Of a stretch of 64,000 nt of DNA, positions 20,211 through 35,717 are shown one piece after another; position 1 is the stretch's first letter; every line of letters starts with the position of its first letter. The stretch is from a phage. The stretch lies in sequence record OZ346222.1. One strand, written 5' to 3'. The translations under genes were made by a program, and so were the position numbers. A model generated the notes under the pieces. That model was not told where the DNA came from. It made no database searches and was given only the letters and a program-made list of their open reading frames with translations.

Positions 20211-20423
20211 TCATAGTCTACCACCTCTGAACTCTTCGTGCTCAGGCATAATAGAGAACCAGATATCTACGATGTCCTCCCACGTCAGGTCATCAGCCTC
20301 AGGATCTGTCTGGGACGAAGATGAAGAGTCCTCAGAATCTAAGTTTTCCTCTTTAACTGGCTCATCCAAGGGACATATGGTCACTCCTTCGGATGTCTCT
20401 TCAGATGCATGTGTGTTGATCAT
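20211..20423 (-). CDS. hypothetical acidic protein (70 aa)
   Basis: Track ORF. Confidence 0.5.
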   Translation of the reverse strand: MINTHASEETSEGVTICPLDEPVKEENLDSEDSSSSSQTDPEADDLTWEDIVDIWFSIMPEHEEFRGGRL

Positions 20424-20521
20424 GTTCCCCCCGTGAGTATTCCGGCAACAGCCGCTATGGAAGTAATGATCATCAGGATCACCACTAAAACTTCAGACAA
20501 TGTTCTCATTGTGTATTCCAT
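20420..20521 (-). CDS. hypothetical membrane micro-protein (33 aa)
   Basis: Below track cutoff; GGAGAA RBS; stop overlaps ATG of downstream gene (ATGA). Confidence 0.4.
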   Translation of the reverse strand: MEYTMRTLSEVLVVILMIITSIAAVAGILTGGT

Positions 20522-20783
20522 ATTCTCCAAACTGTGTGTGGATACTATCACGGGAGCGGTAATGTGTCAACAGCAACGCCGCGAGGGTTTGGTTAAAATC
20601 CGAGCGTATGGTGATTTGGGTCAAAACGGACGTGCGTTCTCGCTACGCTCGAAAGAGAGACTTGTTTGTAGAAAGCTCTTAAACGCTCTGTAACGAGATT
20701 ATCTGTCCAAGGTATGCAATCGTGCACCAGATAAAGAAAAGGACGCCACAGAGCGTCCTAGGTGTCTTAAATTTGATATTTTG

Positions 20784-21095
20784 CTATACCCATGAGGGCT
20801 TATCAAGGTTGGAGTAGCTGAAAGGTGTCAAAAGGTGACTGTCAAAATCCCTCAAACTATCCAAATCTTTTTCCTCGTCCTGACACCATCTGTGCCTACA
20901 TTTATTGTTGTAGTGCATAGAATGCATAGCGTTCTGCAACTTAACAGGTACAAGTGATTCAGGAGTAGATAGTATTGTTGGGTATGCCAGAATCACCTCA
21001 AACAGTGGAAACACATCGAAACTAAAGTCTATCTCTGCAGAGGTTGATGGCATATAGGAGTATTTAGCCGCCTTTGTAGACATAATCCACCTCAC
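20784..21095 (-). CDS. hypothetical protein (103 aa)
   Basis: Track ORF in leftward array. Confidence 0.5.
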   Translation of the reverse strand: MRWIMSTKAAKYSYMPSTSAEIDFSFDVFPLFEVILAYPTILSTPESLVPVKLQNAMHSMHYNNKCRHRWCQDEEKDLDSLRDFDSHLLTPFSYSNLDKPSWV

Positions 21096-21209
21096 ACAGG
21101 TTTGATAATACCTTTACCGAATAATTCTTCGTATCTAATCTTATCCGGATCCCACTCTTGGATAATTTCGAAGACAATATCCAACCCAGGGATAATCACT
21201 TCTCCAGTG

Positions 21210-21419
21210 TCAAGTTTGGCAAGAACAAAACCAGAAGGCTGAATGGTTTCCCAGTTGTGCTTCATTGGAATAGAAGACCTCGAAAATATCGCCGACCTTT
21301 ATCTGTTGATCAAGATGTTCAAGATTCTCTTTCATATAGACGCAGCGGATTTTTCGTGCAGGCCAGAGACCACCTGCATCACGTTCATTTAGCTCTTTTA
21401 CAGTAATCGGTATACCCAT
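21210..21419 (-). CDS. hypothetical protein (69 aa)
   Basis: Track ORF in leftward array. Confidence 0.5.
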   Translation of the reverse strand: MGIPITVKELNERDAGGLWPARKIRCVYMKENLEHLDQQIKVGDIFEVFYSNEAQLGNHSAFWFCSCQT

Positions 21420-21436
21420 CTCAAATCTCCTTCATA

Positions 21437-21468
21437 GATAGTAAAAAGAGGGGCCCAAGCCCCCCTCT
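21437..21468 (-). terminator. intrinsic terminator (hairpin symmetric, may act on both strands)
   Basis: AGAGGGGGGCTTGGGCCCCTCTT flanked by T-runs on the minus strand. Confidence 0.5.
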
Positions 21469-21474
21469 TTGTCA

Positions 21475-21780
21475 TTATTCTACAGAGCGTTTGAACAGAA
21501 TGTCTGCCTCAGACATGTGCTCAACCTCTTCTTCGATTTTAGCGCGACGTTTTTCAGCCTCATAGCGAATATCGAACTCGGTAGCCACCAGAGATTTGAT
21601 GAATTTAGGAGAATACAGGTGATCCTGCTTCTCAACGAGAATGATATCCTTAATGGCATCTTTCAGATCTTTAATCTGAAGTTGGAGTTCTACCAGTTCT
21701 TCGATTGTTTTGCGAAGGCGATCACGCTCTGCAGTGTCAGAAGGAAGAGAGGTGAACAGTTCAACTTTAGATTTAGCCAT
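21475..21780 (-). CDS. hypothetical coiled-coil protein (101 aa)
   Basis: Track ORF. Confidence 0.55.
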   Translation of the reverse strand: MAKSKVELFTSLPSDTAERDRLRKTIEELVELQLQIKDLKDAIKDIILVEKQDHLYSPKFIKSLVATEFDIRYEAEKRRAKIEEEVEHMSEADILFKRSVE

Positions 21781-21808
21781 AGTAAGAGTCTCCTTATGTT
21801 GTTTTAAA

Positions 21809-22126
21809 TTAACGTTCTACAAAAATACCGTTCAGTTCAATAACCAGGAATTTCTGGTCTTCACTATCGTCTCGTGCCAGCACCTCACAGACGTATCGGT
21901 CATCCCCATCATCATCGCAGTCAAATACAAGACTGAGGACTTTATCATGGTAAACCTTCGCCACTACCGCCTCGTAAGTATTGCCGATTGTGAATCCAAG
22001 ATAATCTCCGATGCATTTGACAACAACATGGTCTCCAGCATTTAAGTCAATCTTCGTCATTACTGCGCTCCTTGGGTAATAATACTGTATGTAAAACTTT
22101 AACCAGAGATGTGAATAACGCCCCAA
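21809..22126 (-). CDS. hypothetical protein (105 aa)
   Basis: Track ORF. Confidence 0.55.
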   Translation of the reverse strand: MGRYSHLWLKFYIQYYYPRSAVMTKIDLNAGDHVVVKCIGDYLGFTIGNTYEAVVAKVYHDKVLSLVFDCDDDGDDRYVCEVLARDDSEDQKFLVIELNGIFVER

Positions 22127-22215
22127 AACACACCGATAGCGCTAAAACAGACAAGGCCATCATTAAAGCTTCAGTAAAATCAGTCATTCCTCACCTCTTG
22201 TTAGTCACTGTACTA

Positions 22216-22479
22216 TCATTTATCCTTGTCGTCAAGAACTTTTTTAAATCTTTCAGGGATATCTCCCGTTCTTAGATAGTTCATGACCTCGCAAGGTTCC
22301 CACTTGAATTTCTTACAGAGCAGGGCGGCTGAGATTGTTTCATTGCGAAAAGAAAGGATATTAATATCCCACTCTGAGAACCCCAACTTCCGAAGGGTAG
22401 CTACAGAAATCCTCACCGCAACCCAGCAGCAAAAACATGCAACAAACGCCACTGCTACAACCCACATCAGGATGTTCAT
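22216..22479 (-). CDS. membrane protein (87 aa)
   Basis: Track ORF; N-terminal TM helix. Confidence 0.5.
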   Translation of the reverse strand: MNILMWVVAVAFVACFCCWVAVRISVATLRKLGFSEWDINILSFRNETISAALLCKKFKWEPCEVMNYLRTGDIPERFKKVLDDKDK

Positions 22480-22568
22480 ATAAGCACCTTACTGAAATAC
22501 AAGACACAGTGTTAAGGTTACTGACCAGCAAATAATTAACAGTGCCGTTGCAACCTTTGCAAGATTTA

Positions 22569-22856
22569 TCATAGTGCCTCTAAGATTTCATATCCTTCGG
22601 GTCGGAATACAAGCCACTCCGTGGCTCCGTTTGGTCGATACGCTTTATACAGAACAACCTGGTCTCGGCACATGCACATGGCTACATAGTTTTCATCCAC
22701 ACCTGCAGCCTGCATTGCATCTTCTTCTCCGGCAACTGCTTTGCTTACAACTTCCTTGGTAGGCAGGTGTGCGATCAGCTCGTCACCATCATTAATTCCA
22801 AAATGGCTGAGTTCGCCGTTGGTATCTTTAATCTTAATCTTAACCAGATCTTTCAT
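22569..22856 (-). CDS. small acidic protein, paralog family B (95 aa)
   Basis: Track ORF; MK start and C-terminal YE(I/V)(V/L) motif shared with neighbours. Confidence 0.55.
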   Translation of the reverse strand: MKDLVKIKIKDTNGELSHFGINDGDELIAHLPTKEVVSKAVAGEEDAMQAAGVDENYVAMCMCRDQVVLYKAYRPNGATEWLVFRPEGYEILEAL

Positions 22857-23185
22857 TAGTCTTCCCCCAGGTTCAAAGGTCCTAAGATTTCATATGCCAG
22901 ATTAGAAGTTACAAGAGGGTCTTCTGCGTCTTTAGTATTATACCACCCGTGAATAACCAGAGTCCCACTTTGTTTCATGTCCAACTGGAACTCTTCTGCC
23001 GTTTCCTCATCCAGCTCCAAGATTTCCATAAGGTATTTGATGTTAGGGAGGTATGCAGCTGTTACAGTCCCCTCTACCAGACCTTCAGGCCAACCTACAT
23101 CTGGATGACAAGTAGGAACCAGGTTGGTCAGCTTAATGGTGTACGCTTTTTCTGCACGAGCCTTCAGTAACGGGTCAATCTTCAT
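22856..23185 (-). CDS. small acidic protein, paralog family B (109 aa)
   Basis: Track ORF; start/stop overlap with neighbours. Confidence 0.55.
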   Translation of the reverse strand: MKIDPLLKARAEKAYTIKLTNLVPTCHPDVGWPEGLVEGTVTAAYLPNIKYLMEILELDEETAEEFQLDMKQSGTLVIHGWYNTKDAEDPLVTSNLAYEILGPLNLGED

Positions 23186-23535
23186 TATTCGTCCTCCTCT
23201 TCGGTACCTGCTTCCAGTAATAAGTTAAGAATATCTTCTGCACAAGGTTCATAGAACTCTTGGCCTTCATTATCGATGATTTTGTAGTCATCTCCACGAA
23301 TAATCAGGGGATCACTATCAAAATTATCGAGACCTTTAACAACGACAACACGATCGATTGCCATCATTGTAAGAACTTTATCGACATCTTCCTCTGCTAC
23401 ACCATACTGCAGCAGAATGTCTTTGGTAGGAGGAACAGCATCCACCACAACGCCGTTACCAAAACCTTCTGGAAGTTTAGCTAAAATATCTTCCGGAACC
23501 ACATTCACATCAAAACCGGTAATTTCTACTTTCAT
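23185..23535 (-). CDS. small acidic protein, paralog family B (116 aa)
   Basis: Track ORF; MKVEITG start, acidic tail. Confidence 0.55.
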   Translation of the reverse strand: MKVEITGFDVNVVPEDILAKLPEGFGNGVVVDAVPPTKDILLQYGVAEEDVDKVLTMMAIDRVVVVKGLDNFDSDPLIIRGDDYKIIDNEGQEFYEPCAEDILNLLLEAGTEEEDE

Positions 23536-23796
23536 TTACAGCACCTCTTCGTCAACTACTTCATAAAAATGGCCTGGGATTGCAATAGCGTTCTCACCTT
23601 CACCTACAAACACAGTTCCGTCAAGAATCAACATCATAAGAATTTCTGTAATATCCTCTTCCGGAACGTTGCCAAAACCTTTAATCAGCTCGTAGGTTGG
23701 AATATTTACCTCTAAGATGTCACCATCTTTAGAACGGAAATCAACACCGTCCTGAATCTCTGCCGTTTCAAGGTTTTTCAATTTAATCTTCATCAA
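23536..23796 (-). CDS. small acidic protein, paralog family B (86 aa)
   Basis: Track ORF; ends FYEVVDEEVL. Confidence 0.55.
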   Translation of the reverse strand: MMKIKLKNLETAEIQDGVDFRSKDGDILEVNIPTYELIKGFGNVPEEDITEILMMLILDGTVFVGEGENAIAIPGHFYEVVDEEVL

Positions 23797-23872
23797 TCGG
23801 TCCCCTGTCTTGTTAAGATGAAGGTATTATTTCACACAGGGTTGGCGTTGTCAACACCTGTGTGCAAGAAAA

Positions 23873-24268
23873 TTACTGAAACAGTGCGGATAAATTACCT
23901 TCTGGTGGGAACTTATCTGCCAAAAACGGTGTTAGCACAGTAGCCTTCTGAAGATCTGGGGTCCACTCGTTGTTCAGAACATCCCAGTAGTACGCAATGT
24001 TGCTGTGTGGGTGCCGCATTACGAACTTTTTCCCTTCGTAGTCATCTGAAACCTCTACAGAAGAAATAACAACAGAATCTTCAAGGGTTTCTTCATAGAA
24101 AGATCCACCTTCAAATTTCCAACGAGATGCAAGAGCCCCTGCCTTGAACGCTGCAGATAACGGACTGTCGGCAAGAACATACATTTCTTGCACTCTGTCG
24201 CTGCGATCTTTGCTTCTTACGTTGTATACAGTATCTGAGCTATACTCAACACGGTATAGTCTTACCAT
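23873..24268 (-). CDS. hypothetical protein, paralog family C (131 aa)
   Basis: Track ORF; shares HP...YW...W(T)P motif with 26074..26472. Confidence 0.55.
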   Translation of the reverse strand: MVRLYRVEYSSDTVYNVRSKDRSDRVQEMYVLADSPLSAAFKAGALASRWKFEGGSFYEETLEDSVVISSVEVSDDYEGKKFVMRHPHSNIAYYWDVLNNEWTPDLQKATVLTPFLADKFPPEGNLSALFQ

Positions 24269-24627
24269 TACCGCACCTCCTCAATAACTTCCACATCTGA
24301 ACCCACCACAAATGCAAAAGGACAGGTTTCATGAAAGACATCCGGATCTCCGCCAAGCTTGCTAACAATTTCTCCACCACTAATAAACACAAGCTCACCG
24401 ATATTCATCAGATTGCTGAAATAGTATCCATAATGATTAAAGAATGCAGCAGGGTCAGGTAGACTAGTAGCCTCAAGTTCTACATCGGTTGAGATTACTT
24501 TCTTATCATAACCTCTCGCCTTCTGAGATGCAAGATCCGCAGAATCTTCAGGCGACCTGAGATGCACAGGAATTGTTTCACCAATAAAGCGTACTTTCAT
24601 ATTATCACCCAACAACCATAGCTTCAA
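24268..24627 (-). CDS. small acidic protein, paralog family A-like (119 aa)
   Basis: Track ORF; internal MKVRFIGE may be the true start; ends VEVIEEVR. Confidence 0.5.
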   Translation of the reverse strand: MKLWLLGDNMKVRFIGETIPVHLRSPEDSADLASQKARGYDKKVISTDVELEATSLPDPAAFFNHYGYYFSNLMNIGELVFISGGEIVSKLGGDPDVFHETCPFAFVVGSDVEVIEEVR

Positions 24628-24868
24628 AAGGGGTCATGAACGAATAAACGGCATCATCATCTGCTTCAGGGAATGCTCCCAAAGACTTCATGTCTGAGCC
24701 CTTGACAAATACAAGGTTTTGATCAAAAGCTTCTTGGGGATCAATCCGATACATATTTCGTAGAATATCGCTTACCTCCTCATCAAGAGGTGAGTATGCT
24801 GTGCACGTTTTTCCGATCAAGCTTTGAGAATCAGGGTATCCACCTGAAGTTTTAAAATAAACAATCAT
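24605..24868 (-). CDS. hypothetical protein (87 aa)
   Basis: Track ORF. Confidence 0.5.
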   Translation of the reverse strand: MIVYFKTSGGYPDSQSLIGKTCTAYSPLDEEVSDILRNMYRIDPQEAFDQNLVFVKGSDMKSLGAFPEADDDAVYSFMTPFEAMVVG

Positions 24869-24958
24869 ATAGTATCACCTCTGGTAAGAGATGGGATTCC
24901 TTTCCCACAAATAATTACAAACCTTCCTTATCGAGGAAGTATGCTAATCCAAGCAGGA

Positions 24959-25228
24959 TTATTCCTCTACAATCTCATACACATCAGGAGTTACAATCAA
25001 CTCTTCTCCGTTACCCGGTGCAATAAACACCACCAAACCTTCAGGTGTGTGCTTTTTAGCCATCTCGATAACATCTTCCCGCAGGGCTGGCTCCATCAGA
25101 TCAAAACCTTCACCCAGGGCATCACGAACCACCTTCATATAGTCCACTGGTTGTGCTTCAACAATCATGCCTTCAACCAGACCACAATTTTTGTCTGCCA
25201 GCTCAGTTTTGAATAATTTAATTTTCAT
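24959..25228 (-). CDS. small acidic protein, paralog family B (89 aa)
   Basis: Track ORF; MKIKLFK start, ends VYEIVEE. Confidence 0.55.
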   Translation of the reverse strand: MKIKLFKTELADKNCGLVEGMIVEAQPVDYMKVVRDALGEGFDLMEPALREDVIEMAKKHTPEGLVVFIAPGNGEELIVTPDVYEIVEE

Positions 25229-25261
25229 TTAGAGGTCTCCTCAATTATTTGATATTAATAG

Positions 25262-25363
25262 CCGTAACCTAACACATTAACTACAACTGCGATTGCAAAC
25301 ATAATTTCAAAGCATGCAATCTCTACATTTGGGACTAATTTCTTGATCACACCCATTGTAGCA
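25262..25363 (-). CDS. hypothetical hydrophobic micro-protein (33 aa)
   Basis: Below track cutoff; GAGGTG RBS 6 nt before ATG. Confidence 0.3.
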
Positions 25364-25365
25364 CC

Positions 25366-25683
25366 TCATTCTCTAAAGTCAATCTTTACTTTGCCTTTCC
25401 CCTTACCTTTCTTTCCACCGCATTTAGCCAGTTGACGTGCTGCAACATCTACCATACGGTCAGTTGCCTCGTAAGCATCACTGCCTTTAGCTTTGGCAAT
25501 AACTTCTTTTCCAGAATTGTCAAAAATGAACGCCATAACTTCCTGGTGATCATTTTCAACTTTTACACTCACACGTGCATAGTTGGCAGAGGGATGCAAA
25601 CGCTCCAGCTTAGACATTTTGTGGGAAATGAAAGACACCATACCTTCAGTGATTTCTACGTTGCCAGTGATTTCAATTTGCAT
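25366..25683 (-). CDS. hpf: ribosome hibernation promoting factor / RaiA-like protein
   Basis: Track ORF; MQIEITGNVEITEGM...KLERL...SVKVEN...AKAKGSDAYEATDRMVDVAARQLAK follows the bacterial HPF/YfiA pattern. Confidence 0.8.
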   Translation of the reverse strand: MQIEITGNVEITEGMVSFISHKMSKLERLHPSANYARVSVKVENDHQEVMAFIFDNSGKEVIAKAKGSDAYEATDRMVDVAARQLAKCGGKKGKGKGKVKIDFRE

Positions 25684-25765
25684 AACGTGTTCCTTTTAAA
25701 GAAGAGGGAACCAAACCCTCTTTGAAAACAATGATACTAAATCTGAAGCGTTGTGTCAACAGTTT

Positions 25766-26056
25766 TTACAGATTGTTGTCGATAGTTTTTAAAATATCCA
25801 CAGCAAGATCTGCCATTTTTCGAACATACTCTGCAAACTCAACAGGATCCTTGATCAAAGAATTCACAGGGTCGTACCCTAGAGCGTTCAAAATGGCTGC
25901 AGCATCTACAACCTTCTCATCATTTGCGAAGATCTCTCCATCAAACTTGTAGGTCCATTTTGAGTCAATCTTGGCAGGGAATGATTGGTCAACGCTTGTT
26001 ACACCATCCTTTTTAAACGCTCCGGTGTTATCAGTGTCTAGAACTAAATCCATCAT
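25766..26056 (-). CDS. hypothetical protein (96 aa)
   Basis: Track ORF. Confidence 0.5.
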   Translation of the reverse strand: MMDLVLDTDNTGAFKKDGVTSVDQSFPAKIDSKWTYKFDGEIFANDEKVVDAAAILNALGYDPVNSLIKDPVEFAEYVRKMADLAVDILKTIDNNL

Positions 26057-26073
26057 GTTAGTACCTCACCGTT

Positions 26074-26472
26074 TCAGTTTAGCTTTTCTTCAACAACCCC
26101 ATAGCTCGGGACAGAGTCAAGAGCTTTCTGGTTTAAAAGTGGTGTAGCAGAATCTGCAAACGGTGTCCAAGTTTTTGTTCTGGCGTTCCAGTAATGCTTC
26201 ACTCTGGAATCTGGATGCACTATAACAAAAACTTTTTCACTTGTCAACACATTAATTTCTTCCACACCCCTGCTGATAATTTCTCCGTCATATCCCCCGG
26301 TCTGGTATCCTTCGTACCAGGTTCTTGCATAGGCATAGCCAGCCTGCCAGCATGCAGCCTCCTCCGAGGTGGAGACTACGTAGAAGTCTTTCTCAAATTC
26401 TGGGATACGCCCTTGCTTTACGCTCCAAGCTCCGCGAATTTTCATTGTAACTTTGAATAGTTTATTTTTCAC
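26074..26472 (-). CDS. hypothetical protein, paralog family C (132 aa)
   Basis: Track ORF; paralog of 23873..24268. Confidence 0.55.
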   Translation of the reverse strand: MKNKLFKVTMKIRGAWSVKQGRIPEFEKDFYVVSTSEEAACWQAGYAYARTWYEGYQTGGYDGEIISRGVEEINVLTSEKVFVIVHPDSRVKHYWNARTKTWTPFADSATPLLNQKALDSVPSYGVVEEKLN

Positions 26473-26484
26473 AACGGTTACCCA

Positions 26485-26739
26485 TCACAGTTCTACAATA
26501 TCTGCATCTGACCCTGCCCCAAAGGCATAATAGGACTCTTCCCCGAAATAATATTCCGGTGCACCAGCAGCGATCAGGTCTGATCCCAAAATGAATACCA
26601 CGTTGTGGCCTACATAGCTGTGATTTTGCCGCACAGGATCATCCCACGGCAACCCTTCGAAGTATACCGCAGGGACGACCTTTCCTTTCAGGAAGGATTG
26701 CCCCAAGTAGACGTTAGAATCAAGAATTTTAACCTTCAT
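26485..26739 (-). CDS. small protein, paralog family A (84 aa)
   Basis: Track ORF; MKVKILD...GK(V)...LIAAGA motif. Confidence 0.55.
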   Translation of the reverse strand: MKVKILDSNVYLGQSFLKGKVVPAVYFEGLPWDDPVRQNHSYVGHNVVFILGSDLIAAGAPEYYFGEESYYAFGAGSDADIVEL

Positions 26740-27240: not shown

Positions 27241-27533
27241 TCTCCCTCTACCGTGGTCGGATTGTCAGTAAGAAATTGAGCATTGGCTGGAGGCACGCCT
27301 GACATTTTCCACACAACCATAAGTTTGTAACCAGGAACTCTATTAAGTGCAGATCGAGTAGAGTTTGTGCACGTATACTTTCGCTTTCCAAACCCGTTCT
27401 CCATCATAATCCAGTACCCAGTATCTTTGTCACCAGGTATCGGTAGACCACCTTCATCAACCCACTGAATGGACCACGGCACGATGGCTACAGCTTTATA
27501 TTTAAACTTTTTAAACCACTCAAAAAGTTTCAT
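27237..27533 (-). CDS. hypothetical protein (98 aa)
   Basis: Track ORF. Confidence 0.5.
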   Translation of the reverse strand: MKLFEWFKKFKYKAVAIVPWSIQWVDEGGLPIPGDKDTGYWIMMENGFGKRKYTCTNSTRSALNRVPGYKLMVVWKMSGVPPANAQFLTDNPTTVEGD

Positions 27534-27628
27534 AATTCAGCCTCGCATAGACATAATCACTATAAACAGGCAAACAATGAATCCGAATGCCACGCCACCC
27601 ATAAACGTTAATATTGATGCAATCATAG

Positions 27629-27826
27629 TCAATCAGCCTCGCTTGGCAACTCTTCTACCTTAACATGCCGAAAAGTGTTACCGTAATGGTTGATCCATGA
27701 CATCAGCTCGCTTTCTTGCTCTTCCTCTGGGATGAACTCTCGAATGCTGACAAGTTTTAAGAAAACCCAATCACAATCTGCACCCATTCTACCAGACAGG
27801 CAATAGTGCTTCATAAAACCCCCCAC
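27629..27826 (-). CDS. hypothetical protein (65 aa)
   Basis: Track ORF. Confidence 0.5.
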   Translation of the reverse strand: MGGFMKHYCLSGRMGADCDWVFLKLVSIREFIPEEEQESELMSWINHYGNTFRHVKVEELPSEAD

Positions 27827-27831
27827 CTGGT

Positions 27832-28654: not shown

Positions 28655-28716
28655 TCTCTCTACCTCTTTCTTAGTTTATTTCACTATGGCACATCCTTTG
28701 TGCCATATCTCAACTA

Positions 28717-28959: not shown

Positions 28960-29188
28960 AAGGGCCGCCAGCTCTGCGTATTAACCTCTCCACAGAGACT
29001 TCGAACGTCACACCTGTAACGTAATCATCTATAACAAGTCGTGACGGGTCTTTACCTTTACTATCAAGAGGTATCAAAGTTATCTTTCCAGATTTTGTTA
29101 AAATTTCCCCTTTTTCAAGCAAGGTGTACCAATGCTCTCTGCCAAGACTGTTGAGGCACGTTTTTACATATTTAACAAACATCGTCAC
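28856..29188 (-). CDS. hypothetical protein (110 aa)
   Basis: Track ORF. Confidence 0.5.
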   Translation of the reverse strand: MTMFVKYVKTCLNSLGREHWYTLLEKGEILTKSGKITLIPLDSKGKDPSRLVIDDYVTGVTFEVSVERLIRRAGGPYDRREYVFDSVTEMGGASVFNVQDGNQRYEVIYR

Positions 29189-29388
29189 CCCTCATCGCAC
29201 GTCTGATATAACCACTCTATAAAATCTTGATACCATTCGCCCTCTGAGCGCTCCGTAGGCCAATAATCTTCACCCTCTCGTGCATTAAAATCTGAGTATT
29301 CAACTTTCCACTCCTTTACCAGCTCGTGGAGAAGGTTTTCAGCCTGCTCTAAAGATTTATTTTTTACCATTGCTGTCTCCTTTTTCAA
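29185..29388 (-). CDS. hypothetical protein (67 aa; second ATG with AAGGAGA RBS may be the true start)
   Basis: Track ORF. Confidence 0.5.
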   Translation of the reverse strand: MKKETAMVKNKSLEQAENLLHELVKEWKVEYSDFNAREGEDYWPTERSEGEWYQDFIEWLYQTCDEG

Positions 29389-29589
29389 GATAGTTATACA
29401 TCAGAACTGCACCACCTAAGATGGCTACCAGTAACAATACCCCAGATAGCATCTCAATAAACATGGCTTGAAACACTGGAAGGCCTCCCTAAATTAACGC
29501 ACCATTTTAAATACATGCTCTTTTCCCATAAAGGTGCCTGGCTAAGATCTGCGTAGAACGCAATCTCTTTAAGAACAGTATAAACAGTT

Positions 29590-29826
29590 TTAGGTGCGGT
29601 CTCCATCCCTACCCTCCTTTTTCTCCTTCCTGATATTCTTGTAGTAATCAACTAGGCACATTATTACGATGAAGATAACAACAGGCCAAAAAGGTGCAGC
29701 AGTGATGATGGTGATAAAATCATCAAACTTCACCCTTCGTCTGGACACGATGCATACACCTGTCAAGAATACCGCTGTTATAACGGACATTACCAGGTAA
29801 CCTATTAGCACAACATTTATACTCAT
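29590..29826 (-). CDS. membrane protein (78 aa, two TM helices)
   Basis: Track ORF. Confidence 0.55.
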   Translation of the reverse strand: MSINVVLIGYLVMSVITAVFLTGVCIVSRRRVKFDDFITIITAAPFWPVVIFIVIMCLVDYYKNIRKEKKEGRDGDRT

Positions 29827-29856
29827 TGGTCCTCCCTTTGTAGGTTAAATTGTATA

Positions 29857-30390
29857 CTACAAATGGTCGCTGAGGGTGTCAAGAAAATTATCCCGTTCTT
29901 TCTCAGAGTTTTCATGTGTGTAGCTGAAAAACATATCGAGAATAACCTTATTGATATATTCCAGCTCCTCTGTGTTCAGATGCTTAGCAGGATCTACAAT
30001 GACATCCCAAATATCATACAGACCACACTCATGATACCCATAACGCCACTCAATTGTCAAGCTGAGCGGCAAATCTTTACCTTCACAAACAACCTTCCAT
30101 CTACATATGTTGGTATCTGGTCGTACCTGTGCACGGTACACCTGCACAAAATCCAATTTGAATTTGAGGTACTCGTCATACAATTTAAGCACAAAGCTCT
30201 CGATTTGTGGAGACACTTTTGCAGCAAACTGTGCGTATTTGTACTTGCACTGGATGATCTTTCTGCGTTTTGCAGTTAAATTTTTTGCCGCCAGTTGTTC
30301 TTCAGTGTATCTCCACCTACGATCAACAAACGCAACAGGGTCTTTGTCCCCATAGAGGTCTTCCCAGTTAATCAGAAGCATACCTGTCAC
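29857..30390 (-). CDS. hypothetical protein (177 aa)
   Basis: Track ORF. Confidence 0.55.
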   Translation of the reverse strand: MTGMLLINWEDLYGDKDPVAFVDRRWRYTEEQLAAKNLTAKRRKIIQCKYKYAQFAAKVSPQIESFVLKLYDEYLKFKLDFVQVYRAQVRPDTNICRWKVVCEGKDLPLSLTIEWRYGYHECGLYDIWDVIVDPAKHLNTEELEYINKVILDMFFSYTHENSEKERDNFLDTLSDHL

Positions 30391-30620
30391 TCCTCCACAA
30401 CTTCAAGGCCTTTACCGCCTCGCTCTGGCAGATTACTTAAAGATAGGTAATACATATAATCAGGAGAGATCCTGCCAGACTCTGCACCTGCAGCTAGTAA
30501 ATCCTTCCCTTTAACCAGGACAACATTCTCGTTTGCAGATAGCCGTTTTGCTTCCACAATTTTACCAACACAGTCAACCAAGGAAGGGTACCCTAAATCT
30601 GTAAGAAATTTAACTTTCAT
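30387..30620 (-). CDS. small protein, paralog family A (77 aa)
   Basis: Track ORF; MKVKFLTD...GK(I)VEA...DLLAAGA; ends LEVVEE. Confidence 0.55.
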   Translation of the reverse strand: MKVKFLTDLGYPSLVDCVGKIVEAKRLSANENVVLVKGKDLLAAGAESGRISPDYMYYLSLSNLPERGGKGLEVVEE

Positions 30621-30657
30621 GCTACCTCCTACCTACCGTCCCTGGTAAGATAAATTA

Positions 30658-31056
30658 TTACTGAACAGAGCGCGGTGCTGGGAAGGATAACTCTTCTAAA
30701 GAGAAGATTTCATTTCCTACCACCCAAGTTGCTGGGTCATCTGGATCAACAGGTTGGATAATCATTACCTCATCCGCCTCGCACACACGTTTCCCACCCA
30801 TAGTAGCGTCAGCCACTAACATACGCGGCTCTTCAGAAATGCACAGGTAGCCACCTCGGCCCACTGTTCCTTCCACGGGATCCTGCCCTTTGACCACAAT
30901 GAATACCTTCTCTCCTGTGGAGATATTACTTTTCACACTAACAGTTTGACCAACTTTAGATGTACCGATCTTGGTGGCTTCAAACATTAAATCCCGAATT
31001 ACTGTTGCATAGTTGCCGGACACTTTCTTACCTTCTTTAGTAATCTCAATCTTCAT
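30658..31056 (-). CDS. hypothetical protein (132 aa)
   Basis: Track ORF. Confidence 0.55.
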   Translation of the reverse strand: MKIEITKEGKKVSGNYATVIRDLMFEATKIGTSKVGQTVSVKSNISTGEKVFIVVKGQDPVEGTVGRGGYLCISEEPRMLVADATMGGKRVCEADEVMIIQPVDPDDPATWVVGNEIFSLEELSFPAPRSVQ

Positions 31057-31328
31057 AATCTAGGCTCCTTAAATGAATCTATGTAATCAATTAAATCCCA
31101 AGCATCGCGATGGGCTGTCAGAGGGTATACTTCTCCGAGAGGGATCATAGCAATAAGTCTATCAAAAACCCAGTCTGGACGCAACATTTTATGGTGATAT
31201 TCCCACTCACCTTCCACAGATTTTTTCTGAGTGATCAGGATCTCTGTGTAGTGTTTCGCCTGTCTTGAGTAGATTGAAAATGACTTGTACATAAATGACC
31301 CCCTCTTGTTGAAAACAACAATACACAA
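31053..31328 (-). CDS. hypothetical protein (91 aa)
   Basis: Track ORF. Confidence 0.5.
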   Translation of the reverse strand: MCIVVFNKRGSFMYKSFSIYSRQAKHYTEILITQKKSVEGEWEYHHKMLRPDWVFDRLIAMIPLGEVYPLTAHRDAWDLIDYIDSFKEPRL

Positions 31329-31643
31329 CTACCAGGTTACTGTCAAGTAGGCAACCGTATTATTTTTCTCTGGGGAGATGCCAACAACATCTACCTGCAG
31401 ACCTCCTGCCCTTAAATCTCCAACAATGTGCGGGAAGTAATCTGAGAGATGCGAGGGTAGATTTATCGAAAATCCGCACCCCAGAAAGCCTGCTAACGCT
31501 TTATTTTGTATCTCCCCTACAATCGCATCATAAATGGAGTTAAGCTCGTCAGGGAGTGTTACAGGGCGTTTTAGCGCTAGCTGGTGTAATTTGTCCTTAG
31601 CACTCATTTTCATTTCAGGTCTACCTCTGGGGGTGCCAACCAC
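31329..31643 (-). CDS. hypothetical protein (104 aa)
   Basis: Track ORF. Confidence 0.5.
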   Translation of the reverse strand: MVGTPRGRPEMKMSAKDKLHQLALKRPVTLPDELNSIYDAIVGEIQNKALAGFLGCGFSINLPSHLSDYFPHIVGDLRAGGLQVDVVGISPEKNNTVAYLTVTW

Positions 31644-32143
31644 ATAAACGGCGGCAAGTCTAAACGGTTTTTCTTATCCCACACAAAATATGCATATGCT
31701 TGCCCGTCAGTTCTGCCGTTTGATTGAAATGATGGACGCTTAGATATTGTGATCACAGTAGTAGGTGCATTATCAAGCCACCATTCAAATCTGGCTTTGC
31801 TTTCCAGAAAATTAAGACGCAAAAGCATAATAACTACGTCAGCATCTTTCAACGCCTTGTCTACAAACTCACGAGCCAGGCTGTATGGTGGGTTGGTGAT
31901 AATACAGTCAACATGGTTGTATTCTGTATTCAGATAGTCAACACCTTCTTGTATTTCTCCCCATGCAGATCCTAACGGCATACGGGAGTAGAACACACCT
32001 GAGGCACTATTCCTGCAAGGCTCTAAGTAGGTCCAGTCTTCTGGGAACGGAATAAGGTCATACAGCCCTTCTGCACACCACTCCGGTGTCACATACTCAT
32101 CGTAGGCGTTACGTTGTTCATCAGGTTTTCTAGCACAAGTCAT
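31610..32143 (-). CDS. phage-type DNA N6-adenine methyltransferase (Dam-like)
   Basis: Track ORF; YVTPEWCAEG N-terminal segment and catalytic NPPY motif. Confidence 0.75.
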   Translation of the reverse strand: MTCARKPDEQRNAYDEYVTPEWCAEGLYDLIPFPEDWTYLEPCRNSASGVFYSRMPLGSAWGEIQEGVDYLNTEYNHVDCIITNPPYSLAREFVDKALKDADVVIMLLRLNFLESKARFEWWLDNAPTTVITISKRPSFQSNGRTDGQAYAYFVWDKKNRLDLPPFMWLAPPEVDLK

Positions 32144-32194
32144 GCAAATCTCCAGATCATAAAAGCCCTCCGAAGAGGGCTTTAGAATTAATGT

Positions 32195-33244
32195 TTAAGC
32201 TTCTTCGACAATTCCTGCACCCAGGATTTTTTCATTGAGCTCTTTTGCTGTTTTAATAATATTGTCCACCAGACGCTTGCGAGTCTTATCTTTCACCTTA
32301 ACCTCTTCACCGCCGTTCAGAGTAGTCTTCAATTGAGACAGAATATCCTGAAGTTCAACGACAGAGAATCTCTGCAGATCTTCTGAAGTAATCTCACTCA
32401 GGGCAATTCTGACGGTCTCGCCACTTTCCATCTGCAGATTCAGGAACACAGTGTGAACATCACCTTTCGAACCACCCGCTTTTGCAGATTCAACAGCATG
32501 AACTAACTCATCTAAAGATGTGCACTGGTGAATCTCCGGAAGACCTGCTTCACCTAACACGCCTTCTTCATCACCTTTTGCCAGAAGCTTTTTCGGTTTT
32601 TGTCCGTTCTGGATGCGTTGTATGTTGCCTTCATCCAGAATAATAGCTCCAGTGCGTGCTGCCAGCTCTTCTCCGTCCAACCACACTTCGCCACCAGCTG
32701 TGATGGATGCGATCTCATCTTCTGTCAGCACCCCACCGTAGTATTTTTCGATCAGGCGTTCAAAACGTTTTTTCCAGTAGCTGACCTGAGTATTCATGTT
32801 CACACCGTTACCATAAGTGCCACCTTGATAGTAGTGGAACATAAACTCTGTGTCCGGAGCCACAGTACGTTCTTTACAACCAAGCCATAAGATTGTTCCA
32901 GCAGAGCAGCACATCCCTTCAGCATGTGCAACAACGCTTGCCTGAGACTCTCGGAATGCCTGCAGATAAGCCATTGCAATGTGCACGCAACCCCCAGGGC
33001 TATTGATGATCACCCGAATGCTTTCTTCCGGCTGAGCCATACGGATCGTCTGCAGACGAGACATATGATCTTGTAAGTCTTCCAAATCGTCGATATAAAG
33101 AACGTGGTCAACAACAGGTGTTGGGTAGCTGTATGTTTCCATGATACCGCCCGGCATACCAAACATTTTATTACTCATAGGTTCGAAACCGTTCTGTTTT
33201 TCTTTCATGCCGTGCACCATGGTTCTGCGAGGTGTTAAATTCAT
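32195..33244 (-). CDS. ClpP-family serine peptidase with C-terminal extension
   Basis: Track ORF; VIINSPGGCVHIAMAYL and GMCCSAGTIL match the ClpP active-site region. Confidence 0.7.
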   Translation of the reverse strand: MNLTPRRTMVHGMKEKQNGFEPMSNKMFGMPGGIMETYSYPTPVVDHVLYIDDLEDLQDHMSRLQTIRMAQPEESIRVIINSPGGCVHIAMAYLQAFRESQASVVAHAEGMCCSAGTILWLGCKERTVAPDTEFMFHYYQGGTYGNGVNMNTQVSYWKKRFERLIEKYYGGVLTEDEIASITAGGEVWLDGEELAARTGAIILDEGNIQRIQNGQKPKKLLAKGDEEGVLGEAGLPEIHQCTSLDELVHAVESAKAGGSKGDVHTVFLNLQMESGETVRIALSEITSEDLQRFSVVELQDILSQLKTTLNGGEEVKVKDKTRKRLVDNIIKTAKELNEKILGAGIVEEA

Positions 33245-33304
33245 GAGAAATCCTTAATATTGGAAGTTGAAAGCTATTTATTTAAACCTGATTCACATTT
33301 ACCT

Positions 33305-33616
33305 TTATTTAGCAATCACTATGGAATACTTACGATTGTCAGAAGCATCACAACTCAATGATTGCCAGTCTACCACATACCACGTATCATTGTCAACAAT
33401 TACTTTATCGCCTGTTCTGTAGCAAGTGCTGCTTTCAATAATTCGAGACTCGATAAAGAATCTGTGTCGGCGCTCACGTAGCAACGCTAAGTTAATTATA
33501 TTACCACCGCTGTCCTTGGTCCACACATTCTTGGATCCCTTATTTGCCAAAATTGTCTCGCCGTTATAGACAAACAGGCAGTATATTTTATTCAGTTTCT
33601 CTTGTATTGTAGCCAT
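33305..33616 (-). CDS. hypothetical protein (103 aa)
   Basis: Track ORF. Confidence 0.5.
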   Translation of the reverse strand: MATIQEKLNKIYCLFVYNGETILANKGSKNVWTKDSGGNIINLALLRERRHRFFIESRIIESSTCYRTGDKVIVDNDTWYVVDWQSLSCDASDNRKYSIVIAK

Positions 33617-33717
33617 ACTGTCCTTCTCTCTGTTTTGTCCGATAATAATATCTAAAGCTTACCTATTTGTCAACAACTGTTTTAGATATTTAAGGGTGGA
33701 ATAACCACCCTTCTGTA

Positions 33718-34506
33718 TTACTCGGAAACAGGGGTCCAAATATGATTTGCACGATCCTCAATAAGATTGAGTGCGATCTGACGACCCAACCCAGAACGAA
33801 CGACATCGTCTGGACTATCAAAGCTGATCATTCCAACCTCAGGATCTGGATGACGAGTAAAGAAATCCGTCACCCATGCAAGGCCAGATTTACCAGGGAT
33901 GTCACGTTGGCTATTATCACCCATAATTACAAGGGTGGCTTGATCAGAGATCCTTGTGATAATTGACAACATTTCTTCAGGGTTAGTTTGCTGTGCCTCG
34001 TCAATCAGGACAAAGCATCGCTCATCGAAACTACGACCACGAATGCTTTCAACTTCACAAATCTCGATACGGCTGTTCTGACCGTCTCCCAGCATTGCGG
34101 CAAAAGCACCTTTGCCAACACGACGACAAATCGTGTCCATCATGCTTCGAAGATAGGGCCACAGTTTCTGCATTGCATTTCCAGGTTTAAATCCTGAAGT
34201 CTTTCCTGTCTGAACGTAAGGACGTGCAACAATAATCTTATCAATCTCGTTCTTACGCAGAAGATCACCTGCATATGCAGATGCCATGAATGTCTTACCG
34301 GATCCAAACACACCGTTTACAATAATAATCTTACGTGACCCTAGATAATCAAGATACTTTTGCTGCTTCTTATTCATTGGTCGGAGAGCTGGAGCGGTGT
34401 GCTCTCTTTCGTCAGCAAATTTCTCAGCAGCCTTACGCAGGCGATCAGATTTGCGAGCCTCTCTAGCTTCATCACGCATGCGTTTTGTTTCTTTAGCTCG
34501 ACCCAT
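33718..34506 (-). CDS. phoH: PhoH-like ATPase
   Basis: Track ORF; Walker A GVFGSGKTF and PhoH-like downstream motifs. Confidence 0.85.
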   Translation of the reverse strand: MGRAKETKRMRDEAREARKSDRLRKAAEKFADEREHTAPALRPMNKKQQKYLDYLGSRKIIIVNGVFGSGKTFMASAYAGDLLRKNEIDKIIVARPYVQTGKTSGFKPGNAMQKLWPYLRSMMDTICRRVGKGAFAAMLGDGQNSRIEICEVESIRGRSFDERCFVLIDEAQQTNPEEMLSIITRISDQATLVIMGDNSQRDIPGKSGLAWVTDFFTRHPDPEVGMISFDSPDDVVRSGLGRQIALNLIEDRANHIWTPVSE

Positions 34507-34544
34507 GTTGGGACTCCTTTCAGATTGAGATGTGCCAAGTACTT

Positions 34545-34895
34545 TTACTGCAACAGTTTTTCAATAGCCGCTTCCATGCTGCTTGCAACAGCCTGAACTC
34601 GGATATTCATCTCTTCTTGGTGGATCAGCTCCTTAAGCTCTTTAATGGTAAATTCTTTAGAGAAACCTTCCACCATAATCTTGTGCAAGGCTTCTTGCGT
34701 GTCTACTTGCAAGAACTTTTCCAGTTTGTTGGCAGAGGCTTCTAAATCAGCCCGAATACGAGGGTCATCTGTGCGATTCAGCATTAGGCGTAAGCCATCA
34801 AGATTAGTAGAAATAGCATCTGCATGTTGAGTAACTAACCGTGGCAAAATGAGATCTACAAACTTATTAGCCAAATCGATACGTTCTTGTGTCAC
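34545..34895 (-). CDS. hypothetical protein (116 aa, GTG start)
   Basis: Track ORF. Confidence 0.5.
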   Translation of the reverse strand: MTQERIDLANKFVDLILPRLVTQHADAISTNLDGLRLMLNRTDDPRIRADLEASANKLEKFLQVDTQEALHKIMVEGFSKEFTIKELKELIHQEEMNIRVQAVASSMEAAIEKLLQ

Positions 34896-35005
34896 TGTTG
34901 CACCCCCTCTTCATCTTCATGATGTTTCTTTTCACGCTTGTGTTTTTTCTTAAGCTCAAGCGCAATCTCTTTCTTGTACGCCTTCTTCAAGGCTTTTTTA
35001 GCCAT
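34892..35005 (-). CDS. hypothetical lysine-rich micro-protein (37 aa)
   Basis: Below track cutoff; GGAGGTG RBS; stop overlaps downstream GTG start. Confidence 0.45.
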   Translation of the reverse strand: MAKKALKKAYKKEIALELKKKHKREKKHHEDEEGVQQ

Positions 35006-35067
35006 TTGGCACCTCCTCTGCTTTCATTACGGCAATTATAACCAACTCAACAAAGCTTTGTCAACAA

Positions 35068-35541
35068 CTAGTCTACCTGAACCCAACCGCCTGATACTTT
35101 TTTAAACATTCTTTGGTTATCACTGCCTCGGAACGGTTTCTTGGTTGGTAAATCTTTTACATACTTACCGTCAATGATGATATCAGCCAGTTTAAGAACA
35201 TCACTAGAGATATGGTCAAATGTGAACCCAGTATATACAAGAATAGTTTTCTTGTCACCAAATTTTTCCTTAATTTTCTCCATCAGGCTAATAATATCTG
35301 GCTCATTATAGTATGCTAAGGGTTCTCCACCCAGTAGAGAGATACCGCACACAGACGGGTTATCTAAATCTGACAAGATTTTTTGCAAGTCTTCTTCAGT
35401 GAACTTCCTCCCCTTATCTTTTGACCAAAATGCCTGATTAAAGCAACCAGGGCAATCGTGTGGGCACCCAGATACCCACAAGGCAGTTCTAATACCTGGT
35501 CCTTCGGTGTAAGATATTTCTGTGTATCCAGCAATGTTCAT
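35068..35541 (-). CDS. nrdG: anaerobic ribonucleotide reductase activating protein
   Basis: Track ORF; radical SAM CPHDCPGC motif; directly downstream of nrdD. Confidence 0.9.
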   Translation of the reverse strand: MNIAGYTEISYTEGPGIRTALWVSGCPHDCPGCFNQAFWSKDKGRKFTEEDLQKILSDLDNPSVCGISLLGGEPLAYYNEPDIISLMEKIKEKFGDKKTILVYTGFTFDHISSDVLKLADIIIDGKYVKDLPTKKPFRGSDNQRMFKKVSGGWVQVD

Positions 35542-35654
35542 AGATACTCCGCATCACATTTAGGGCAATGCCAAATAAAATCGTCTAGTGCCTTGCACCA
35601 ACGAAGATTACAACTACAGCCGCACTTGCAAATTTTATAAATACCTGATGACAT
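35538..35654 (-). CDS. Cys-rich zinc-ribbon micro-protein (38 aa)
   Basis: Below track cutoff; GGAGGTG RBS; seven Cys including CKCGCSC and HCPKC; stop overlaps nrdG ATG. Confidence 0.45.
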   Translation of the reverse strand: MSSGIYKICKCGCSCNLRWCKALDDFIWHCPKCDAEYL

Positions 35655-35717
35655 ACTGCACCTCCTAGCTCACTGTGTGTCAATAATATGCCACATCCTT
35701 GTGGCTTTTGTCAAGAA

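Follow-up and report, generated by a model that had tools for sequence, protein, structure and literature searches.

Micro-open reading frames of a Vequintavirus phage: a protein-coding signature in largely known hypothetical genes

We have examined ten micro-open reading frames (micro-ORFs), named c1 to c10, in a 64,000-nucleotide stretch of phage DNA (sequence record OZ346222.1; "the window" denotes this whole stretch). An earlier note on this DNA had singled them out as translationally coupled micro-proteins with strong ribosome-binding sites that are routinely missed by annotation. Our analysis indicates that at least nine of them are genuine protein-coding genes, a conclusion to which we assign a probability of about 0.85 on the basis of their substitution patterns in related phages, and that their interpretation as expressed, coupled micro-proteins is probably right. 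Judged by peptide identity and position, all ten correspond to already known 'hypothetical protein' genes of Vequintavirus, and the finding is in this respect largely ordinary.

The 16-kb stretch around the micro-ORFs is most similar to Escherichia phage JohannBauhin (98.8% identity) and matches 128 phage records, nearly all of which are Vequintavirus (rV5-like) myoviruses of E. coli. Genes in the window point rightwards as far as ~17.4 kb, and those between ~19.9 kb and 56 kb point leftwards, with c1–c6 on the (-) strand and c7–c10 on the (+) strand. The corresponding region of the rV5 genome has been described as containing "88 mainly small ORFs" and adjoins a 2.6-kb stretch free of ORFs (PMC3606486). 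The micro-ORFs are listed below with their lengths in amino acids (aa); SD stands for Shine-Dalgarno sequence.

20420..20521 (-): c1, predicted single-pass membrane micro-protein, 33 aa from the first ATG
34892..35005 (-): c2, 37-aa micro-protein (MAKKALKKAYKKEIALELKKKHKREKKHHEDEEGVQQ); PHROG 7670, E=2e-20; rV5 ORF118
35538..35654 (-): c3, 38-aa micro-protein with seven invariant Cys (MSSGIYKICKCGCSCNLRWCKALDDFIWHCPKCDAEYL); PHROG 20137, E=5e-30
25255..25356 (-): c4, predicted 33-aa single-pass membrane micro-protein (MGVIKKLVPNVEIACFEIMFAIAVVVNVLGYGY); PHROG 15151, E=4e-26; rV5 ORF145
27537..27626 (-): c5, predicted 29-aa single-pass membrane micro-protein (MIASILTFMGGVAFGFIVCLFIVIMSMRG); SD -7.6 kcal/mol
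29357..29476 (-): c6, predicted 39-aa single-pass membrane micro-protein; PHROG 15251 (profile of 39 aa); rV5 ORF131
8199..8318 (+): c7, predicted 39-aa single-pass membrane micro-protein; PHROG 16391, E=5e-30; rV5 ORF193
12018..12137 (+): c8, 39-aa micro-protein with a basic N-terminus and one predicted transmembrane (TM) segment; PHROG 13629, E=4e-32; rV5 ORF181
14679..14783 (+): c9, predicted 34-aa single-pass membrane micro-protein; PHROG 14631; no recognisable SD
15387..15521 (+): c10, 44-aa hydrophobic micro-protein; PHROG 16005; rV5 ORF170; no SD

Coding signature in related phages

Homologous regions were compared from JohannBauhin, bov25_3, rV5, typing phage 14 (TP14), Alma, Murica and CarlMeissner, together with a divergent 137-kb IMG/VR contig (72–89% nucleotide identity) and other contigs. 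Scans of IMG/VR with the ribosome-hibernation factor and with a 207-aa neighbour protein gave two and eight loci, respectively, and most of the diversity was taken record by record. Distant lineages were represented by a Logan contig (L011) and by L021, L022 and L023, which came from a scan with an alignment of NrdG, while c10 and a natural 41-aa variant of c3 from typing phage 14 served as queries in searches for protein homologues.

Conservation in related phages had been proposed as a check on the frames and, when examined, it showed coding-type substitutions, in-frame indels and distant homologues, as would be expected of protein-coding sequence. For nine frames the ratio of non-synonymous to synonymous differences per site (pN/pS) was 0.10–0.47 in the claimed frame, compared with 0.6–3.8 in the two off-frames; pooled over these ORFs, the values were 0.26 in frame versus 0.91 and 1.59. 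The claimed frame had the lowest ratio of the three in 9/9 ORFs counted, and variable columns were commonest at codon position 3 in seven of the nine. The indels recorded in c3 (+6 and +3 nucleotides (nt) in typing phage 14) and in c8 and c10 (+3 nt and -3 nt, respectively, in the divergent contig) maintain the frame.

The same substitutions bear on whether the open frames are incidental to structured RNA elements, such as small RNAs or riboswitch-like leaders, a reading that was considered since the regions are short, conserved and intergenic-looking. Nothing was found in its favour. Substitutions track codon periodicity and not pairing, no Rfam family reaches threshold in the micro-ORF regions, and the minimum-free-energy z-scores of all ten fall between -1.83 and +1.55. 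Together these results effectively refute the RNA reading, to which we give next to no weight.

Translation signals and the level expected by chance

Seven of the ten frames translate from the coordinates first proposed for them, including 29357..29464 (-), 12018..12137 (+), 14679..14783 (+) and 15387..15521 (+). The remaining three had been given as approximate positions which proved to be out of frame and to contain stops, and these were corrected to 25255..25356 (-) for c4, 27537..27626 (-) for c5 and 8199..8318 (+) for c7, the error amounting to 7 nt for c4, to 1 nt for c5 and to 10 nt at the start of c7.

The presence of an ORF is by itself near chance level. Under a crude gene model comprising ORFs of at least 55 aa, there are 48 intergenic gaps, of which 23 hold an ORF of at least 29 aa on the coding strand versus 15 on the opposite strand. 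What exceeds chance is the strength of the ribosome-binding sites and the degree of conservation. The energy of the SD:anti-SD duplex is -13.3 kcal/mol for c2, -11.8 for c6 (from a GTG at 29476), -11.5 for c3, -10.7 for c7 and -10.3 for c8, and only 0.4% of random positions reach -10.3 kcal/mol or lower. Moderate values were obtained for c5 (-7.6), c4 (-6.9) and c1 (-5.2 from the first ATG or -6.4 from an inner ATG), the reference medians being -6.8 kcal/mol for long genes and -1.8 for random positions. Strong ribosome-binding sites, as originally claimed for the set, are therefore a feature of about half of it (c2, c3, c7, c8 and, from the GTG only, c6), whereas those of c1, c4 and c5 are moderate and c9 and c10 have none.

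The stop/start overlaps reported for the first three frames were all confirmed: c1 overlaps a 70-aa gene (ATGA), c2 a 116-aa gene (GTGA) and c3 the nrdG gene (ATGA). Overlaps of this kind are a general packing style of the genome and not a property of micro-ORFs, being found in 18 of 50 adjacent JohannBauhin gene pairs (seven by 4 nt, three of these seven involving micro-ORFs). Judging by promoters and terminators, c1 and c2 each open a transcription unit, whereas c8 closes one.

Eight of the ten peptides contain one 17-residue window with a mean Kyte-Doolittle value of 2.2–2.8 and, by the look of their hydropathy, would be single-pass membrane peptides. The exceptions are c2, which is Lys/Glu-rich, and c3 with its seven invariant Cys. 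Pfam gave nothing above threshold for the ten micro-peptides or for ten neighbouring proteins, and PHROG matches to these neighbours were to families of 'unknown function' only.

The frames are best explained as genuine small protein-coding genes of an rV5-like (Vequintavirus) phage, situated in its densely packed 'small-ORF' regions. Translation would begin at their own strong SD in the case of c2, c3, c6 (GTG), c7 and c8, and at a moderate one in c4, c5 and c1. Since c10, c5, c8 and c6 start in or next to the preceding stop, they might also be reached by terminating ribosomes, and c1, c2, c3, c5 and c6, whose ends coincide with the next start or lie only a few bases from it, could pass ribosomes on. 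The membrane peptides may enter the inner membrane of the host and act on membrane proteins of either host or phage, c8 is possibly part of the holin-like operon that it closes, c2 may work with the 116-aa protein to which it is coupled across lineages, and c3 may fold around a metal as a zinc-ribbon-like knot and serve as an accessory, as opposed to a required part, of the nrdD-nrdG module. Taken together, these functional proposals are tentative, and we would sooner expect them to fail than to hold.

Small single-pass inner-membrane proteins of E. coli such as AcrZ, MgtS and KdpF bind and modulate larger membrane proteins. The phage micro-peptides (29–44 aa) resemble them in having a single hydrophobic helix with short polar ends, but they differ in being phage-encoded and, except for c5, lineage-restricted, and there is no sequence similarity between the two groups (none above threshold in Pfam).

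Counter-arguments and the regulatory-spacer reading

A number of observations weigh against accepting the frames as expressed genes with the roles suggested above. Divergence within the genus is 1–15%, leading to small counts per ORF, the alleles are not phylogenetically independent, and the codon alignments were constructed in the claimed frame. The contrast between frames is weakest for c10 (pN/pS 0.47 vs 0.60 and 1.61), and the SD energies of c9 (-2.9 kcal/mol) and c10 (+0.3) correspond to an absent SD. In Alma, c2 has a 1-nt deletion in an A-run and c3 a 1-nt insertion near its end, both of which shift the frame; the homologues in the near-identical CarlMeissner are intact and the frameshifts are likely to be sequencing errors in the Alma assembly, with real loss as the alternative. 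Some relatives lack c5, c10 or c3, and therefore none of these is essential. Our literature search found no ribosome profiling, proteomics or transcriptomics on these early proteins and nothing relevant on Vequintavirus transcriptomics; the mass spectrometry carried out on rV5 concerned the phage itself (PMC3606486). The functional proposals rest on composition and neighbourhood, the neighbours with an assignment being nrdD/nrdG, the hibernation factor and a 'putative holin'.

The remaining counter-arguments concern regulatory signals that coincide with the frames. Promoter-like sites at 25382..25355 and 27649..27622 (each 10/12) place their -10 hexamers on the start codons of c4 and c5, respectively, and the Gotham record annotates a promoter at c5. 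The Murica record places a terminator inside c3, where there is a weak hairpin at 35601..35585. These signals would suit chance ORFs that happen to lie over regulatory spacers, with c4 and c5 covering promoters of the next gene and c3 a terminator or hairpin, as would the finding that gap ORFs are nearly as common on the non-coding strand. We nevertheless consider this highly unlikely, given that the substitution patterns are frame-specific and the indels in frame, that an intact c5 ORF of unchanged length recurs in a prophage context at 78% nt identity, and that c3 is retained in lineages whose NrdG is 52–56% identical. The signals themselves are also unconvincing: the hairpin in c3 comprises only 3 G-C pairs and lacks a proper T-tract, the z-scores for folding are unremarkable, and promoter-like matches at the stringency of the scan are barely above expectation (28 found vs 19.6 in shuffled sequence).

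Annotation status

The statement that such micro-proteins are routinely missed by annotation turned out to be mostly wrong. All ten are coding sequences (CDSs) in the BASEL phages JohannBauhin, where the counterparts include bas53_0134, bas53_0165 and bas53_0180, and CarlMeissner, and seven have been listed in rV5 since its original annotation (ORFs 118, 131, 145, 170, 173, 181 and 193), the positions matching the JohannBauhin and rV5 annotations one to one. Nine of the ten have a PHROG of their own (34195, 7670, 20137, 15151, 15251, 16391, 13629, 14631 and 16005; E 4e-21 to 4e-32 over the whole profile). The exact peptides of nine are present in NCBI as hypothetical proteins, and the exact sequence of c2 is not in the collection searched. 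The peptides of the window are thus identical or near-identical to those of the Vequintavirus hypothetical-protein genes, with nothing of substance to separate them. Neglect is real mainly for c5 and, to a lesser extent, for c1 and c3, which are skipped or mis-framed: in each of typing phage 14, Alma, bov25_3 and Murica several micro-ORFs go unannotated, and several records list about half. Further ORFs of 29–46 aa are annotated as JohannBauhin CDSs, among them 20135..20224 (-), 20593..20727 (-) and 22047..22187 (-), and therefore the window contains more micro-ORFs than the ten considered here.

As posed, the finding matters little, the ORFs being publicly annotated and tight stop/start overlaps being usual in this phage. 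To what was known we add corrected starts for c1 and c6, selection statistics, distant homologues of c2, c3 and c10, and a re-assessment of rV5 ORF114. The practical yield is that uneven annotation between records is exposed, as are a wrong-frame rV5 ORF over c3 and the omission of c5 from the majority of phage records and from every one of the ten RefSeq E. coli prophage copies. Of modest interest are how deeply the c2 and c3 modules are conserved and that phages and prophages have the c5 cassette in common, and c2 and c3 appear to be the best functional candidates among dozens of unknown early genes in a genus that is used for O157 typing and considered for therapy.

c1 and c2

The description of c1 as a membrane peptide is in keeping with its hydropathy (KD(17) 2.83). 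Its true start is more likely to be the inner ATG at 20509, which would give a protein of 29 aa (MRTLSEVLVVILMIITSIAAVAGILTGGT). This start agrees with the PHROG 34195 profile (29 aa), which matches c1 residues 5–33, and with the 29-aa version annotated in Murica, and it is the only ATG kept in the divergent IMG/VR contig. The four codons upstream of it vary freely and, in several relatives, hold the SD (GGAG, 6 nt upstream of the inner ATG). The pN/pS of c1 is 0.19, compared with 3.77 and 0.89 off-frame. A promoter-like site (20570..20542) is located just upstream of c1, and its stop overlaps the start of the 70-aa gene at 20211..20423. In rV5, ORF162 is an N-terminal extension of this 70-aa gene that covers c1 in another frame.

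The second frame, c2, is the first ORF behind a consensus promoter:

35035..35064 (-): sigma-70 consensus promoter, TTGACA-18-TATAAT, 12/12 matches; P118 in the rV5 record

Its product is lysine-rich, as had been noted, with a basic N-terminus and an acidic C-terminus, and its pN/pS is 0.32 versus 1.42 and 1.09 off-frame. The c2 stop overlaps the GTG start of the 116-aa gene at 34545..34895, and this arrangement recurs in more distant lineages. Homologues of 40–41 aa are found at the same position in L011 (41 aa, Lys/Glu-rich), L021 and L023 (both 40 aa), where they always overlap the start of a 119–133-aa gene upstream of PhoH. L022 can be added by position only, the listing of longest ORFs having merged the homologue into a 100-aa TTG-start frame with the same 4-nt overlap. 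In L011 the protein encoded after c2 has an identity of only 33%. Being conserved across lineages along with its coupling, c2 would rank among the best candidates for functional work.

c3 and the nrdD-nrdG genes

The c3 frame is located between the two genes for an anaerobic (class III) ribonucleotide reductase (RNR) and its activase, and its stop overlaps the nrdG start:

35068..35541 (-): nrdG, class III RNR activase, downstream of c3; annotated in relatives, with a CxxxCxxC radical-SAM motif
35718..37841 (-): nrdD, class III RNR; annotated in relatives, start codon uncertain

This frame had been called a seven-Cys zinc ribbon coupled to nrdG. The seven Cys of the 38-aa peptide are indeed all invariant, and remain so in typing phage 14 despite its 6-nt and 3-nt insertions. 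Coupling to nrdG is plausible here, where the two genes overlap (ATGA), but not in rV5, CarlMeissner and Alma, in which two genes intervene.

Homologues of c3 were found in 122 phage records, and its pN/pS is 0.14 versus 0.98 and 2.76 off-frame. The invariant core (NLRWC..LDDFIWHCPxCDAEYL) occupies the 23 C-terminal residues. Searching with the 41-aa variant retrieved eight protein clusters, one of which is on L011. Longer versions of 53–54 aa are encoded in L011 and L022, whose NrdG proteins are 52–56% identical, and there the core is 83–88% identical to that of the window and the ATGA overlap with nrdG is kept. The L011 protein (53 aa) has a Lys/Glu-rich N-terminal extension, with 83% identity in the core and 52% in NrdG. 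Synonymous sites of c3 are saturated between the window and L011 (pS 0.85) and the core identity of 83–88% therefore reflects selection; for the same reason, recent horizontal transfer was rejected as the cause of the conservation. The C-terminal glycyl-radical region of NrdD is 78–90% identical in the same comparisons. L021 and L023 lack c3 despite NrdG identities of 63–65%, and no c3-like ORF was found at the more distant nrdG loci examined. Considering these absences in L021 and L023 together with its separation from nrdG in rV5-type genomes, c3 is not an obligate component of the nrdD-nrdG module.

The peptide is probably a zinc-ribbon-like metal binder, as suggested by two Cys motifs, C9-x-C11 (CxxC in TP14, L011 and L022) and C30-P-x-C33, and by an AF2 model with three strands. 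The evidence for a zinc ribbon proper is weak: the knuckle pattern and the three-stranded model speak for it, but the mean pLDDT of the model is 66, its top Foldseek matches (Rpb9-type and other zinc ribbons) are non-significant at E values of at least 1.9, and so is the best result against PDB sequences with hmmsearch (E=0.19). The nearest fold matches are haloarchaeal small CPxCG-related zinc-finger proteins (PDB 8q5b), Thermus ZifS (8yoz) and the Rpb9/TFIIS ribbons. The c3 protein resembles these zinc-ribbon micro-proteins in its two Cys knuckles (CxC or CxxC ... CPxC) and in the three-stranded sheet of the model, but differs from them in having three further invariant Cys. To our knowledge, no member of the zinc-ribbon micro-protein families is associated with a class III RNR, and our search for literature on a zinc ribbon between nrdD and nrdG returned nothing relevant.

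A profile of the c3 family recovered only the family itself from 1.84 billion representative proteins, with no remote homologue and no domain fusion, and Pfam gave no match to NRDD, Gly_radical, Radical_SAM or ATP-cone. On sequence grounds, then, the label 'ribonucleotide reductase' carried by PHROG 20137 reflects neighbourhood only and amounts to guilt by association. The presence of c3 does not co-vary with the C-terminal tail of NrdD or the N-terminus of NrdG. We also rejected an origin of c3 as a C-terminal fragment separated from NrdD, since the NrdD of the window is complete and possesses both a Zn ribbon and a glycyl-radical site (CLKCG...CPECG...RRVSGY).

It is conceivable that c3 is a lineage-restricted metal-binding accessory of the anaerobic RNR, for example a rubredoxin-like electron donor or a metal/cluster chaperone for NrdG. 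This would explain why its core is about as well conserved as the NrdD glycyl-radical domain (83–88%) while NrdG has drifted to 52%, why it is wedged between nrdD and nrdG, and why it has no homologue elsewhere. We consider such a role unlikely; if c3 does partner the RNR activase, this would add new biochemistry to an enzyme system that has been studied extensively.

The area around nrdD and nrdG (window 35542..35717) is a hot spot for insertions. In rV5-type genomes a 34-aa Lys-rich peptide and a 78-aa 'minor capsid protein' are encoded between c3 and nrdG (L006 720..1105; L010 28997..29369), in L022 a 169-aa Cys-containing ORF is found upstream of c3 (2301..2810), and in L011 nrdD is split by a 264-aa ORF (4467..5261). 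The c3 locus of rV5 is overlaid by ORF114 (L006 536..763; window ~35480..35720 (-)), a 75-aa TTG-start frame. This frame is interrupted by stops in the window, is not conserved and has no coding signature; ORF114 is probably a mis-call.

The arrangement of c1, c2 and c3 raises the question of whether it is the act of translation, more than the peptide, that matters at these loci. As leader ORFs, they would deliver ribosomes to, or unfold, the starts of the 70-aa gene, the 116-aa gene and nrdG. All three have ATGA or GTGA overlaps and promoter-like sites directly upstream, the 116-aa gene has a GTG start with its SD inside c2, and the c2 overlap has been kept in three other lineages in varied forms (GTGA, ATGA, TAATG). 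Leader ORFs would not, however, be expected to show the purifying selection observed on the peptides (pN/pS 0.19 for c1, 0.32 for c2 and 0.14 for c3), nor a c3 whose seven Cys and 23-residue C-terminal core are invariant across lineages and which, in rV5-type genomes, is still an intact 38-aa frame although nrdG is no longer adjacent to it, nor a c2 whose charge pattern is kept where its sequence has diverged. We regard a pure leader function as improbable, although it and a function of the peptides are not exclusive.

A predicted membrane micro-gene cassette at c5

The c5 frame, at the outset the weakest of the candidates and in the end the one that taught most, starts 2 nt after the upstream stop (TGA-CT-ATG) and ends 3 nt before the next start. 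It forms a unit of ~96 nt bounded by a 10-nt direct repeat, GCGAGGCTGA (window 27527..27636 (-)). In Murica, c5 is precisely absent and exactly one copy of the repeat is left. The repeat encodes "...R-G-stop" and holds both an SD (GAGG) and the stop, providing for coupling to the next ORF.

Searches with tblastn found c5 intact in 91 Vequintavirus records, in most of which it is unannotated. The sequence was invariant in the first set of genomes. Across five relatives there are 17 pairwise differences, of which ~12 are distinct, and all are at codon positions 1 or 3. The replacements are conservative (swaps among I/V/L/M/F/A), and the flanking genes differ by 10–28% in the more divergent relatives. 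The only PHROG match of c5 is a weak one (E=0.004) to an unrelated family, yet it is still an annotated CDS in the BASEL genomes.

A look-up of protein clusters identified a near-identical c5 peptide in E. coli genomes. Its DNA is present in 10 of 5,426 complete E. coli chromosomes at 78–92% nt identity, in every case left unannotated (PGAP), whereas the other nine micro-ORFs have no match in these 5,426 genomes. These copies are in prophages, where they are preceded by a holin-lysozyme-Rz cassette plus a 180-aa gene and followed by the terminase. They comprise an intact 29-aa ORF flanked on either side by the same CGAGGCTGA-tt-ATG junctions (L038 3487..3595; L039 3487..3595). Compared with the most divergent prophage copy, nine codon changes are synonymous and seven replacing, six of these conservative and one G29D. 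An intact ORF in both phages and prophages with the same junction repeats argues that c5 is a real micro-gene and a small mobile cassette.

Exchange of moron-like cassettes, or exchange at boundary sequences, occurs among lambdoid and other tailed phages. Like these elements, c5 is a discrete unit with a short repeated junction that is present or absent between otherwise collinear genomes, and it is common to lytic Vequintavirus phages and temperate E. coli prophages. Unlike morons, it is far smaller and without its own terminator, the only promoter-like sequence being the weak match over its start, and the repeat at its borders is the SD-plus-stop junction (GAGG-C-TGA) that joins translationally coupled genes. 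One could thus envisage c5 as a ~100-nt membrane micro-gene cassette that is exchanged between lytic coliphages and temperate ones through recombination at SD-plus-stop repeats. We put this forward as a second and smaller idea beside the accessory role of c3, and view the two jointly as a long shot.

In one of the prophages (E. coli PAR; L038 3590..4452) the c5 homologue is followed by a chain of hydrophobic ORFs of 22–47 aa, mostly unannotated. This chain sits between the lysis cassette and the terminase and resembles the micro-ORF arrays of lytic phage.

The other membrane frames

The c4 frame is placed 9 nt downstream of the ribosome-hibernation-factor gene (25366..25683). Its pN/pS is 0.14 versus 0.80 and 2.85, and its stop is kept through a TAA>TGA change in one relative.

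The c6 frame overlaps genes on both sides and probably starts at the GTG at 29476, 12 nt upstream of the ATG at 29464 that had been proposed. An SD (GGGAGG) lies 7 nt before the GTG, and its energy of -11.8 kcal/mol compares with +0.6 for the ATG; the 120-nt version is also the one annotated in Murica and as rV5 ORF131. Nine synonymous differences and one non-synonymous difference separate c6 from its homologue in the divergent contig, and its overall pN/pS is 0.10. In typing phage 14 (L007 6792..7280), a deletion fuses c6 in frame to a downstream homologue of a 'possible structural protein', producing a 162-aa ORF which retains the c6 membrane segment at its N-terminus.

Between two promoter-like sites, c7 stands alone, and an 11/12 promoter begins at 8319, directly after its stop. 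The length of c7 is the same in all alleles, and its pN/pS is 0.22 versus 0.81 and 1.57.

The ATG of c8 overlaps the stop of the upstream gene at 11758..12021 (ATGA). It is the last frame in an operon whose first gene was called a 'putative holin' by the BASEL annotators, a gene that obtains no functional assignment from Pfam or PHROG, and a terminator (12142..12161) follows directly after it. The TM part of c8 is invariant in the divergent contig despite the 3-nt insertion there, and its pN/pS is 0.16. The lysin of rV5 has been described as Gp89 (PMC3606486), and no lysin is annotated in the stretches examined.

A second allele of c9, of the same length and 53% identical, is carried by CarlMeissner, Alma, TP14 and L012. 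The two alleles have a conserved C-terminus (ATM[SA]NMILSS[NH]GIG), and the pN/pS of c9 is 0.41 versus 0.77 and 2.52.

The ATG of c10 lies 2 nt past the stop of the upstream gene at 15100..15384 (TAA-CC-ATG), and therefore termination-reinitiation is its likely route of translation. In the divergent contig c10 is 72% identical at the nt level with its ORF kept through the 3-nt deletion, and homologues with 66–68% identity are encoded by two ~150-kb Escherichia phages.

Further observations on the window

The converging gene blocks meet at ~17410..19870, a region of ~2.5 kb without an annotated gene in any relative. The rV5 paper terms its ORF-free stretch 'non-coding' (PMC3606486). In the window, this region contains only three short tandem repeats, with no tRNA and no Rfam match reaching threshold. 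At 60743..61555 (+) there are seven clustered tRNA-like genes (Arg, Tyr, Ser, Thr, Met, Pro), among them a 99-nt element (61212..61310) to which ARAGORN assigns a four-base anticodon and Rfam a weak tRNA score of 35.5 bits. Finally, ~19 records titled 'Campylobacter phage' (MG0656xx) are ~99% identical to these E. coli phages and unannotated, and their host label looks doubtful.

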